Part shown: piece by piece, positions 2,319 to 25,948 of the stretch
Layout: each line of letters begins with the position of its first letter
Numbering within the stretch: position 1 is the stretch's first letter
IMG/VR virus record: IMGVR_UViG_2660238683_000009
Coordinates: 1 to 41,078 of that record
Direction: 5' to 3' (one strand)
DNA: 41,078 bases
Origin: a virus
Lineage: Duplodnaviria; Heunggongvirae; Uroviricota; Caudoviricetes
The notes under the pieces: generated by a model
Seen by the model: only the letters and a program-made list of their open reading frames with translations
Told to the model about the DNA's origin: nothing
Database searches by the model: none
Program-made: the position numbers and the translations under genes

Positions 2319-3218
2319 TTAATACCCCAGCGCGATAAAACAACAATCTTCGGTGCCCTCTCCGGATGGCGACCAGTTCTGAATACTGATATGCGTTCTG
2401 CTGGCAATACGCACATTCATCGCGGCATTGTAGCCAGATGTTCCACGGTTTCCGGTCGCAAATAAGCCTGCATAGGGAAAAGCAAATGGTAAGGCATATC
2501 CAGCATCAGCTCCCTTTTGTGTTGCCACCGTTCCCCACTGCAACATAAGTTTCACCGGGTTTCCTGTCGTCGCAATGCATGGAATGTAGATGTAGCCATT
2601 CCCTGACATCATTGACCTGAAGCTGCCTAAATCCAGTAACTTCGAGGCATTATCTGCTCCAACATCTCGTGTTGCAGCGGTCCCTAACTGGAGCGCATTT
2701 CGGAAGGCTGATACATCAGAAATATCAGATCCATTAGCCGATTTCTGCATAGCTCCGGAGGCTTTATTTATCGTTTCTCCCAAACCAAGGTATGTGAGAA
2801 TGTCTGCAATAGTATTTTTCCCGATAATGTCACGGCCTACAGAAGTTAAATCAGTCTGCGCTGCTGTATCATTTCCAGTGAAATACGGGAGTTTATTTGC
2901 ACCGGTTTCGAGCCCAGCCAATGCCGTCAGCGTGGCATCAAGGGCCTGGAAATCCTTCCCAAAAGCGGTTCCCATTTTGGAGATAAACCCGTTCAGGTCA
3001 CCATCATCAAGCACGTCCAGCCCACTTTTGTTGGCTGTGTACTGCGCAAGCGCTGCCGCAATAAAGCTGGCCTGCCGAATAACCTTATTGACTTGCGCAC
3101 TGGATGCTTTCCCTGCTGTAAATCCGGATATAAGCGCAGGCAACGCTTCCCATTCCTCCTGCGACATAACATTGGCATTTCGATCAGTTGCAAACGCTTT
3201 AAAGTCATTTTTCGCCAT
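2319..3218 (-). CDS. Tail fiber protein
   Basis: Gly/Ala/Thr-rich ~300 aa protein between baseplate gene and Tfa; start at Met overlapping upstream stop (TGATG coupling); ORF track start is 3236. Confidence 0.5.
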   Translation of the reverse strand: MAKNDFKAFATDRNANVMSQEEWEALPALISGFTAGKASSAQVNKVIRQASFIAAALAQYTANKSGLDVLDDGDLNGFISKMGTAFGKDFQALDATLTALAGLETGANKLPYFTGNDTAAQTDLTSVGRDIIGKNTIADILTYLGLGETINKASGAMQKSANGSDISDVSAFRNALQLGTAATRDVGADNASKLLDLGSFRSMMSGNGYIYIPCIATTGNPVKLMLQWGTVATQKGADAGYALPFAFPYAGLFATGNRGTSGYNAAMNVRIASRTHISIQNWSPSGEGTEDCCFIALGY

Positions 3219-3898
3219 CAGAGTAATACTCCCCATGCCCCTACATCAAAACCACTGATGAATTCGTTATCCATATCAAAACCAAAAAATTTAGAGCCTT
3301 CCGATGGAGTTTCCACCGAAGGTGTTTCAATGCCACCCGCCCATACCCCGGCGGCTTTTACTGTTAGATACCCCTGTTTAATTGCCGCAATTAACTCACG
3401 CGATACATCTGAAATATCAGTATCAGGAAAGACCCAGACCGATATCGTCATGTCCTGGTTATCGACTATCTGCATTCGCAGCCCGGATCCTGCTGTTGCA
3501 GCGTCAAGAATTGCCGGAAGCGAATCATTCCGTCCGTCCCAGTTATTAATCGCAATCTTCGCTTTAAGGATGACACGATAAGTTTCATCGCTGAGGTACA
3601 TGTATCCGGAATCAGGATCGTATGGCCCCTGCCATACACCCTGATCATATCCAAGCCCGTCGGTATCCCAGCTGAAATAGACACCTGAGATAGGCTGGCT
3701 GACAACACGGCTACGCCCGATCCACAATCCCAGAATGTCAAGTTGCACACCAACGGCAGAGTCAATATCAAATGCAGTAATCAGCCCTCTGGTGGCAGCC
3801 GCAACATCAATAAGCGGCCGGGTCATCAGATCAACATGTGCAAGAAATTTAGGTTTGGTGGCGTGGTAGTTCGTGATTAGTTCGGTGTATTTGCTCAT
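3218..3898 (-). CDS. Baseplate/tail protein, Mu gp48-like (DUF2313/YmfQ-like)
   Basis: 226 aa, position between baseplate J-like gene and tail fiber; 4-nt ATGA overlap with upstream gene; recalled resemblance to e14 YmfQ/Mu gp48. Confidence 0.45.
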   Translation of the reverse strand: MSKYTELITNYHATKPKFLAHVDLMTRPLIDVAAATRGLITAFDIDSAVGVQLDILGLWIGRSRVVSQPISGVYFSWDTDGLGYDQGVWQGPYDPDSGYMYLSDETYRVILKAKIAINNWDGRNDSLPAILDAATAGSGLRMQIVDNQDMTISVWVFPDTDISDVSRELIAAIKQGYLTVKAAGVWAGGIETPSVETPSEGSKFFGFDMDNEFISGFDVGAWGVLL

Positions 3899-6725: not shown

Positions 6726-7604
6726 TCGGCAGTCGTATGTTGCATACTGTCGCGGCGCATCCATGCTGGCTTGTACCCACTGAGCGTTTAGGATGGCTTT
6801 TCCTTTACGTTTAATGTATTCAATACCAACCCAACGACCGGGCAGACTGGTAGCAACCATCCACTCCATTTTTATATTATCCGGTTCGTTGTTAGTGCTG
6901 CCACCAGCACCGATGGGAGTAATTTTTTGCGTCTCTGGTTTCGCGCCATTAATTCTGGCCCAGCCATCAGCAGAGGAAAGATCTATCCTATACGGTCCAC
7001 AAACTATTATGTAATTGATGCCAAGTTTTTCGTTGCTGCGAGCTTTCCTGCTTTTCTCATAATCTTCCTTCGCAACATCATTCATCTTTTGATAGATAGC
7101 AGGTTGTTTTAAAGAAAACTCATTCAGCTTCTTAATAAAGTTTTCTCGCGGAACCTCTGCAAGCCCCATAGATTTTCTATCAAGGATATAGTCATCATAT
7201 ATCTTTGACACAACAGAAAGTGATGACAGTTTTTTAGCTAAATCATTTGCAAAGTTTAGATAATTAAGTGGTGAGTTGTCTCTTATATCAATAGCTCTAA
7301 CTCCACCTGTACCGTATTCATGATAAGCAGCATAAAAAACAGGTATACTTTCAGGTTTTTTGTTAATCGCTTTAATTAGTCCTTCTGGACCGCAAGACTC
7401 TCCACTCCAGTCAATAAGCGACTTCCCTTTCGATTTCCATGTTTGGCAATCATCAGCTGATAAAATTAAAATTGGCTGCCACCCCGGGCGTTTTTTGTAA
7501 CTAACATTCTTATCAGAATTGAAGCCTGCATTTGCGCATCCAGAAACGAGCAGCACCGACAGGAAAATCACACTGTATCGAAGTCCATTCATGTTCTTAT
7601 ACAC
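6714..7604 (-). CDS. Predicted lipoprotein of unknown function (cargo gene in baseplate operon)
   Basis: 296 aa; signal peptide with lipobox (LLVSGC); AT-rich relative to flanking tail genes; start abuts stop of upstream hub gene. No family recognised. Confidence 0.6.
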   Translation of the reverse strand: MYKNMNGLRYSVIFLSVLLVSGCANAGFNSDKNVSYKKRPGWQPILILSADDCQTWKSKGKSLIDWSGESCGPEGLIKAINKKPESIPVFYAAYHEYGTGGVRAIDIRDNSPLNYLNFANDLAKKLSSLSVVSKIYDDYILDRKSMGLAEVPRENFIKKLNEFSLKQPAIYQKMNDVAKEDYEKSRKARSNEKLGINYIIVCGPYRIDLSSADGWARINGAKPETQKITPIGAGGSTNNEPDNIKMEWMVATSLPGRWVGIEYIKRKGKAILNAQWVQASMDAPRQYATYDCRKVK

Positions 7605-25411: not shown

Positions 25412-25536
25412 GTCTTACCCCCAATAAGGGGATTTGCTCTATTTAATTAGGAATAAGGTCGATTACTGATAGAACAAATCCAGGCTACTGTGTTTAGTAA
25501 TCAGATTTGTTCGTGACAGATATGCACGGGCAAAAC

Positions 25537-25566
25537 GGCAGGAGGTTGTTAGCGCGACCTCCTGTC
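25537..25566 (-). terminator. Possible tR'-like terminator upstream of S
   Basis: Minus-strand hairpin (GACAGGAGG...CCTCCTGCC) followed by GTTTTG; weak U-tract, so low confidence. Confidence 0.3.
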
Positions 25567-25948
25567 ACCCGCTTTCACGAAGATCATGTGTAGAAGGCCG
25601 CAGCGTAACTATCACTGATGAATTCAGGATAGCCAGTGGCTACGGCTCAGTTTGGGTTGTGGCGGCCGGAATCGAACCGGCTTCCATCGGTGCGCTGCCG
25701 ATTGCAGTACGCGCGGCGGTCAGCTACATGACTAGTATTTTCACTGTCGCCTATCTGCTAGCTCGCCATTGAGCTTCACCACAACGATAAGAGCACTGCG
25801 CGGCACCTTTCACCAATTCCGCGAGGTCTGCGGGTTCAATGCTCTTACCTGTTGTGCAAACAAAAAAAGCCACCGTTGCAACTTAAGAGTCACTAACGGC
25901 AGCTTATGCGAATAGTGTTGCTCATTTGCTCAATGATGTCAACACGTT

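Follow-up and report, generated by a model that had tools for sequence, protein, structure and literature searches.

A conserved tRNA-shaped RNA in the late leader of a lambdoid phage, a variant of an apparently uncatalogued phage RNA scaffold family

The minus strand of the lambdoid phage genome IMGVR_UViG_2660238683_000009 carries a tRNA-like motif between a Q-like gene and the holin gene S, and it has to be asked whether this motif belongs to a tRNA gene, to the remnant of one, to the late leader RNA or to no functional structure at all. The window, i.e. the whole stretch of DNA analysed, comprises 41,078 nucleotides (nt) and corresponds to positions 1 to 41,078 of that record. In the initial annotation, a textbook T arm was described together with an acceptor-like 3′ strand and a complementary strand about 120 nt upstream, too far for a standard tRNA. 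Both the T arm and the complementary 5′ strand could be located again, and they belong to an RNA of 132 nt (element B, 25784-25653, minus strand) on the strand of the late transcript, which is also that of the leader initiated at pR′, as had been suspected. An 8-base-pair (bp) acceptor-like stem encloses a D-like arm, an extra arm of 55 nt, an anticodon-like arm and a canonical T arm, and the element ends in C-CCA.

The fold was assessed by aligning 27 distinct homologues and scoring the six-helix structure for pairing. In total, 98.9% of the alignment cells form standard pairs, and 10 pairs are changed on both sides, compared to 4.5 ± 1.4 in shuffled alignments, none of which (0 of 500) reached the observed value. 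With slid partners as a control, the pairing fell to 23-50%. Most of the compensatory changes are located in the non-tRNA parts, namely the extra arm and the anticodon-like arm. In the former, 7 of the 11 pairs changed on both sides and 96-100% of the cells are paired, with columns 41/64 changing from A-U to C-G, G-C and U·G; in the latter, a G-C to A-U compensation occurs in one homologue (L184) and wobble changes in another (L131). Two pairs of the T stem are changed on both sides (C-G to U-A in four to five sequences; GGUGG/CCACU in L184), and the closing stem changes from U·G to U-A and from G-C to G·U. The T loop is invariant save for U or C at one position, and N-CCA is found in 24 of the 27 homologues. 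Because the many G·U cells (e.g., U7·G123 in 22 of 27) would be C·A mismatches on the opposite strand, the folded strand is that of the late transcript.

The window element is present in 164 of 5,426 complete Escherichia coli genomes, always in the chromosome and never annotated. 141 of these copies are at least 99% identical, and the diverged ones retain every helix by compensatory or wobble changes. The T-arm motif by itself is not significant: the exact sequence GGTTCGANTCC occurs once in the window against 0.09 expected occurrences, yet with a looser definition, chance alone would yield about 1.1 occurrences per window. It is thus the comparative evidence, and not the motif, by which element B is confirmed as a real conserved folded RNA.

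ARAGORN detected no tRNA and no transfer-messenger RNA (tmRNA) in the window, and no Rfam 15 family matched the window at the gathering thresholds. In permissive mode, only a partial tmRNA match (RF00023) was obtained, scoring 20.2 bits where the gathering threshold is 47; it spans the T arm, the acceptor 3′ strand and part of the 5′ side while the central 316 model positions are skipped, and one lower-scoring match of the same clan was suppressed beneath it. It had been stated beforehand that without any database match the resemblance would be coincidental; the matches are formally missing, yet that conclusion is wrong, since the covariation demonstrates a structure.

The ends of element B are those of a canonical tRNA, i.e. 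the stem UUGUGGUG/CGCCACAA followed by C and CCA, and the T arm, with 8 instead of 7 bp in the stem. The anticodon arm and the length (132 nt with the 55-nt extra arm, versus about 70-95 nt) are not. The D and anticodon arms, which had been regarded as not placeable, could be placed once the extra arm was allowed; the 7-nt loop CAGCGCA of the latter, as read from the sequence, lacks U33 and R37 (A at position 33, C at position 37) and is not a canonical anticodon loop. The supposed near-CCA, A-CCC, is correct in sequence, but with an 8-bp stem it becomes the discriminator C followed by a true CCA, in the same register as that of tRNA-Thr, which phage Sf6 carries at the matching genomic position. 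Between the T stem (ending at 25665) and the closing 3′ strand (starting at 25664) there is no unpaired nucleotide. The positions of all parts and of the neighbouring features are given in Table 1.

Table 1. Features of the Q-S interval of the window and parts of element B (z, z-score of the folding energy)
Feature	Position	Strand	Description
Q-like open reading frame (ORF)	26494-25949	-	matches phage-21-type Q cluster
Candidate late promoter pR′	25942-25937	-	TTGACA; homology to annotated pR′ of HK75 and Sf6
Terminator tR′	about 25903-25862	-	hairpin + U7; homology to annotated tR′ of HK75 and Sf6
Element A	25786-25856	-	CACAAC, then 13-bp near-perfect hairpin GGUAAGAGCAUUG...CAGUGCUCUUAUC with variable top; z = -2.5
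Element B, closing stem 5′ strand	25777-25784	-	UUGUGGUG; pairs with 25657-25664; 8 pairs, 99.1% of cells paired in 27 homologues
Element B, D-like arm (helix 2)	25760-25775	-	(A)GCUC-AAUGGC-GAGC(U), GG in loop; 99.3% paired, almost invariant
Element B, extra ("payload") arm (helices 3 and 4)	25704-25758	-	GCAG/CUGC outer stem, GGCG/CGCC and CAG/CUG inner stems
Element B, anticodon-like (or class-II variable-arm-like) hairpin (helix 5)	25686-25702	-	AUCGG-CAGCGCA-CCGAU; 98.5% paired
Element B, T arm (helix 6)	25665-25681	-	GCCGG-UUCGAUU-CCGGC; canonical T loop
Element B, closing stem 3′ strand	25664-25657	-	CGCCACAA; paired with 25777-25784
Element B, discriminator	25656	-	C
Element B, CCA	25655-25653	-	CCA
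Holin S	25411-25088	-	lambda-type; endolysin R next

Pattern scans of viral contigs revealed that element B is related to a larger family of RNAs. Its scaffold is framed by a closing helix; an AA linker of 2 nt leads into the first hairpin (usually UGCGCA-GGCUGA-UGCGCN), and after an interior that is folded but hypervariable comes the last hairpin (usually GCCGG-AGAUCAGCA-CCGGC), flush with the closing strand. On this one scaffold, at least 45 interior types of 30-190 nt could be identified; several of the scans give lower bounds only. The loops of the two hairpins are complementary (GCUGA/UCAGC), and the resulting kissing helix, 4-5 bp long in most members, is 98.3% paired over 83 scaffold constructs. 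Pairing was required by the scaffold filter in three helices, the loop-loop pairing not being among them. The complementarity is re-made with other sequences in one member (GGUCGA/UUCGACA) and in another type (CUAGU/GCUAG). The scaffold alignment is 96.9% paired, with 12 pairs changed on both sides compared to 3.1 ± 1.3. In scans with exact patterns, the anchoring part is invariant in sequence by design. With the last hairpin as the only anchor, the closing stem turned out to be fully variable and perfectly compensated (GCAGAUG/CAUCUGC, GAGCCGG/CCGGCUC, GAUAGUU/AACUAUC and others), and the AA linker was present in 63 of the 76 wide members found in this way. A looser parser for the 3′ strand shortened many elements and was used qualitatively only.

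The common geometry comprises a stem of 7-8 bp, the 2-nt linker and a 5-bp last stem flush with the 3′ strand; this last stem abuts the closing 3′ strand in the window and in 43 of 47 types. The window element has a closing helix of at least 7 bp, the AA linker and a first hairpin with a 6-nt loop, as do the other members, and its D-like arm occupies the place of hairpin 1 (loop GGCUGA) after the identical linker. In the window type and its relative C27, however, AAUGGC and UUCGAUU replace the complementary GGCUGA and ..UCAGY.. loops, so that no kissing helix is formed. This change is read as a swap to the D/T-loop contact of tRNAs, which makes the window element a variant and not a typical member of the family.

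The interior behaves like an exchangeable cassette. In the window and HK75, in CUS-3 and in HK629, three unrelated interiors are found with identical flanks, element A, closing stem and N-CCA, and between phages the payload is swapped with flanks that are 95-100% identical. Interiors of one type show compensatory changes across genera, for which reason the payload is regarded as a folded domain. No Rfam 15 family matches any scaffold variant in gathering or permissive mode, and a search of the open-access literature by description and by literal sequence revealed nothing describing the scaffold RNA. The family is therefore apparently uncatalogued.

In phage lambda itself, elements A and B come shortly after tR′ (about 44,790-44,945, with B at about 44,857-44,945), both unannotated, and the closing stem is compensated (UUGUGCUG/CAGCACAA followed by C and CCA). 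The lambda type was found in 435 of the 5,426 E. coli genomes. In addition, lambda-type B (query 75-147) occurs unannotated at 121 places on E. coli plasmids of about 90 kb, e.g., NZ_CP122809.1 (12989-13059) and NZ_CP172219.1 (53141-53211), which may be phage-plasmids. DLP12 of E. coli K-12 does not contain the element, so the annotation and expression data of K-12 are of no help. The exact 24-nt hairpin-1 motif was detected in 58 species-representative genomes, each with a different interior, including many Enterobacterales, Aeromonas, Marinobacterium, Moraxellaceae, Lysobacterales, several Betaproteobacteria and Martelella. It also occurs in a few metagenome-assembled genomes of other phyla, the taxon labels of which may be unreliable. 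In total, the scaffold with non-tRNA loops is found in hundreds of phages of many Proteobacteria.

The most common upstream neighbours of family members are Q-like antiterminators or a cI-type repressor, and the most common downstream neighbours are holins or, in a subgroup with an extended basal helix, an N-like gene; the element is flanked either by a Q-like antiterminator and a holin or by a cI-type repressor and the N-like gene. In the N-linked subgroup, a promoter-like site and a boxB-like GNRA hairpin come before the element, and a Shine-Dalgarno sequence and ATG after it. Two such early-leader members were inspected (L397, about 7000-7330, and L373, about 2900-3110, both minus strand); their N-like protein belongs to phrog_271, the boxB-like hairpins are GCGCU-GAAA-AGUGC and CCGC-CGAAAU-GCGG, and the extended helix is UGGCUUUGGGA-UGUGGUG...CACCACA-UCACCAAAGCCA. 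No protein family was constantly adjacent to the element in the neighbour survey. Real tRNAs are located 1-10 nt from the element in Massilia, Aeromonas and other genomes.

Some members show further arrangements. One contig (L048, 1-750) contains an array of B, A and a second B with a different interior, followed by tRNA-Ser, tRNA-Arg and tRNA-Met. In three metagenomic phages (L430, L434 and L437), GCGGGTTCGATTCCCGC-TAGGTGG lies within about 10 nt 3′ of the element, with a gene end just upstream; it resembles a tRNA 3′ half of the kind used as attachment site and may represent a third genomic context, near att. In another member (L375, about 3709-3875, minus strand) the interior itself contains a D-arm-like AGCUCAACUGGUAGAGCU and a T-arm-like UCUGGUUCAACUCCAGA, i.e. 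a tRNA-like module inside the scaffold.

In the window, the Q-like ORF is followed on the minus strand by pR′, tR′, a non-coding leader of 450 nt and the genes S and R, with the candidate pR′ and tR′ (25942-25862) directly upstream of elements A and B. The leader flanks are common to 253 GenBank phages. As the initial annotation had pointed out, lambdoid phages carry tRNA genes in this region, and tRNA-Asn and tRNA-Thr are in fact located in exactly this slot in Sf6, phage 21 and BTP1-type phages; tRNAs in the Q-S late leader have been described (PMC8022706, PMC7547250). The pR′-to-tR′ leader of the window (25862-25942) is of the phage-21/HK75/Sf6 type, its promoter-proximal part being unlike those of HK75 and Sf6. 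In Stx phages, the terminated leader of such a pR′-tR′ unit is the regulatory small RNA (sRNA) StxS (PMC7547250). A simple promoter and terminator scan of the interval missed even the known pR′ and tR′. In HK629 (L004, 83-595), an HNH endonuclease gene lies between the annotated pR′ and a tR′-like hairpin, directly upstream of A and B. The stretch of about 240 nt from the element to S (25412-25652, minus strand) is near-identical in lambda, Sf6, HK75, CUS-3 and HK629, a conservation that is unusually high for non-coding phage DNA; it contains a strong hairpin, GGCAGGAGGUCGCGCUAACAACCUCCUGCC, and is annotated in CUS-3 as "bsq3 boundary sequence".

Element A travels with the tRNA-like element in lambda (where z of the A copy is -3.2), HK75, CUS-3, HK629 and many genomes; in Massilia, a tRNA stands in for it. 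The 3′-flanking GUUGUG shares nucleotides with the 5′ strand of B's closing stem and can pair either with CACAAC or within B, the pairing being different in the minimum free energy (MFE) and the centroid structures. Element A may act as a site for RNase III or as a conformational switch. The 3′ strand of A, UGCUCUUA, is similar to boxA, and a boxA-like YGCUCUU(U/A) is found 5-6 nt upstream of many family members. Furthermore, a conserved strand, GUGCUCUU(U/A)(C/U)CGU, lies upstream of most of them. In one genome (L364), isrJ, a short Q-controlled leader RNA of Gifsy-type phages, is located just upstream of A.

Starting from the observed fold, strand, genomic positions and missing annotation, and from the membership of the element in the family as a variant, we tentatively favour, at somewhat less than even confidence, a stable RNA that is excised from the leader and carries a trans-acting payload on a scaffold for processing and stability; element B would be the tRNA-shaped variant of this phage family. 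The RNA would be included in the late-operon transcript from pR′ once Q permits read-through of tR′. The contact between the loops of the last and the first hairpin would reproduce the acceptor/T-arm stack and the D/T elbow of a tRNA, and the scaffold would be a module for processing and stability. Excision in lambdoid late leaders may be carried out by the enzymes of tRNA maturation, with RNase P acting at the 5′ side and 3′ trimming to CCA; members with a basal helix of 17-20 bp would presumably be excised by RNase III. The variable domain of the released, compact and stable RNA could then act in trans during infection.

Several observations weigh against an excised trans-acting RNA. The processing is inferred from the shape of the element and its neighbourhood. 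CCA is found in 19 of 47 types, compared to about 19% by chance, and in 18 of the 76 wide members, many of which sit on a basal helix of 17-20 bp without a free 3′ tail; tRNA-type processing therefore fits the lambdoid branch at most, and the tRNA likeness as a whole is a feature of this branch, strongest in the window type. CCA as a family-defining trait was accordingly rejected, the enrichment being modest and the CCA missing where the stem extends into a long helix. The single-sequence MFE z-scores are modest (-1.8 for the window element), and the scaffold statistics are in part a product of the filters and the exact-pattern ascertainment. As a rule, there is one element copy per leader, which fits a cis-acting element as well as a gene. 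Finally, the longest payload complementarity in the 41-kb window is 11 nt, compared to a mean of 10.96 in shuffles, so that no trans target emerged there.

The strongest rival, which we consider less probable but well worth keeping, is a cis-acting leader element without a trans product, be it a processing site that uncouples the promoter-proximal qut/nut leader from the mRNA downstream, an element that stabilises the 5′ end, or a module linked to boxA by which RNA polymerase is helped across a long stretch without translation. Such a role is suggested by the constant position of the elements in untranslated leaders that open long operons, late (Q, tR′, A, B, holin) as well as early (N-like), by the boxA-like sequence upstream of many members, by the single copy per leader, and by the long basal helices and the near-perfect hairpin of element A. 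However, a plain hairpin for processing or stability would leave the conserved kissing-loop scaffold and the cassette-like exchange of the interior unexplained. Within element A of the late leaders, the boxA-like strand is engaged in pairing, and for antitermination lambda can already rely on N and Q. HK022, whose antiterminator is an RNA (put), has no scaffold motifs in its pL, pR and Q-S leaders, and its put RNA shows no similarity to the scaffold. Moreover, real tRNA genes can take the place of the element and also surround it.

A bolder version of the trans-acting reading is rather unlikely in our estimation, a little more so than the cis-acting element: the family would be a widespread, undescribed class of phage RNAs, excised from early or late leaders, with a rapidly exchanged payload on an elbow scaffold, acting in trans in conflicts between phage and host or between phages, e.g., as decoy or binder of tRNA-directed or RNA-sensing defences.

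P1 and P7 C4 and the P4 CI RNAs are cut from a leader by RNase P and have an acceptor-like stem, NCCA and variable hairpins, an architecture that resembles the one described here. An antisense immunity RNA of this type, with loops pairing to targets in the same phage, is nevertheless improbable. IsrK/C4-like RNAs have been noted in lambdoid prophages in a TraDIS (transposon insertion sequencing) study (PMC3632133), but neither the C4 (RF01695) nor the IsrK covariance model matched at E<=10 or E<=1. Furthermore, the payload complementarity in the window does not exceed chance, there are no cis targets, and the payloads look like folded domains and not like exposed seed loops. The scaffold also differs by its kissing or D/T loops and its large folded insert.

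Slightly less credible still are inverted repeats that act at the DNA level and mark the recombination boundaries of a mosaic "moron" slot without any RNA function. The flanks are annotated as boundary sequences bsq3 and bsq4 in CUS-3, and it is precisely here that different cassettes (tRNAs, A/B types) replace one another; the G·U wobbles, however, work only on the transcribed strand, the inner helices covary and the loop complementarity is conserved. As a side effect, the conserved flanks may promote the exchange of cassettes. A decayed or interrupted tRNA gene, as proposed initially on the basis of the T arm and the lambdoid tRNA slot, and in keeping with the GG in the D-like loop, the N-CCA and the failure of ARAGORN and the Rfam tRNA model, has the least to recommend it and is largely refuted, since the non-tRNA helices 3-5 are conserved and covary, the E. 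coli copies are near-identical or keep all helices, and the family extends to scaffolds with non-tRNA loops in hundreds of phages.

Further candidates were tried and rejected. The anti-sRNAs AgvB and AsxR, considered because of CACAACA after tR′, are convergent and lie on the opposite strand, and their Rfam models do not match. sRNAs of the Pas, StxS and IsrJ type end in terminators or are the pR′-tR′ transcript itself, with isrJ located upstream of A as mentioned above. For a retron-like non-coding RNA, there is neither a reverse transcriptase nor a constant neighbouring protein. The CUGAUG of hairpin 1 recalls hammerhead ribozymes, but it is placed within a loop and not in a junction, and no Rfam ribozyme matched. 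A self-targeting antisense RNA was dismissed because complementarity is not above chance.

Phage annotations are blank in this interval because gene finders and Rfam miss the elements. If the RNA is indeed undescribed, a conserved structured RNA has remained unnoticed in the late-operon leader of lambda, one of the best-studied transcription units, and in hundreds of temperate phages. When a folded domain is exchanged like a cassette while its scaffold stays constant, this bears the signature of an arms-race module, and a novel layer of interaction between phage and host, based on RNA, could lie behind it. Watson-Crick kissing loops would be a second way to build the elbow of a tRNA.

Among known systems, the closest by position are the slot tRNAs, i.e. 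tRNA-Asn and tRNA-Thr of Sf6, phage 21, BTP1 and L, and ileZ-argN-argO of Stx phages, with which the window element shares slot, strand and flanks as well as the acceptor stem, the 2-nt linker, the GG in the D-like loop and the T arm. Unlike these, it has 132 nt, a 55-nt arm and no canonical anticodon loop, and cannot decode. In contrast to tmRNA (RF00023), it contains neither pseudoknots nor a tag reading frame. Family members resemble the lambda N leader with its nut site in being found in early leaders as well, where a boxB-like hairpin precedes and an N-like gene follows them. We take this to be the position of the RNase III hairpin of the lambda N leader; we know of no nut or put element with a four-way, kissing-loop architecture. 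Species 1 and 2 of phage T4 (rnaC and rnaD) are stable RNAs of about 120-140 nt that are co-transcribed within a tRNA cluster and matured by the tRNA-processing machinery. This behaviour is what we infer for the window element, the likeness being one of description; T4 is virulent, unlike the window phage, and hypervariable cassettes are, as far as we are aware, not known for species 1 and 2. In the engineered tRNA scaffold of Ponchon and Dardel, a payload RNA reportedly replaces the anticodon arm and is processed and stabilised by the host. The scaffold described here would be the natural counterpart of this construct, which the window element resembles most directly, while most family members use a kissing-loop elbow instead.
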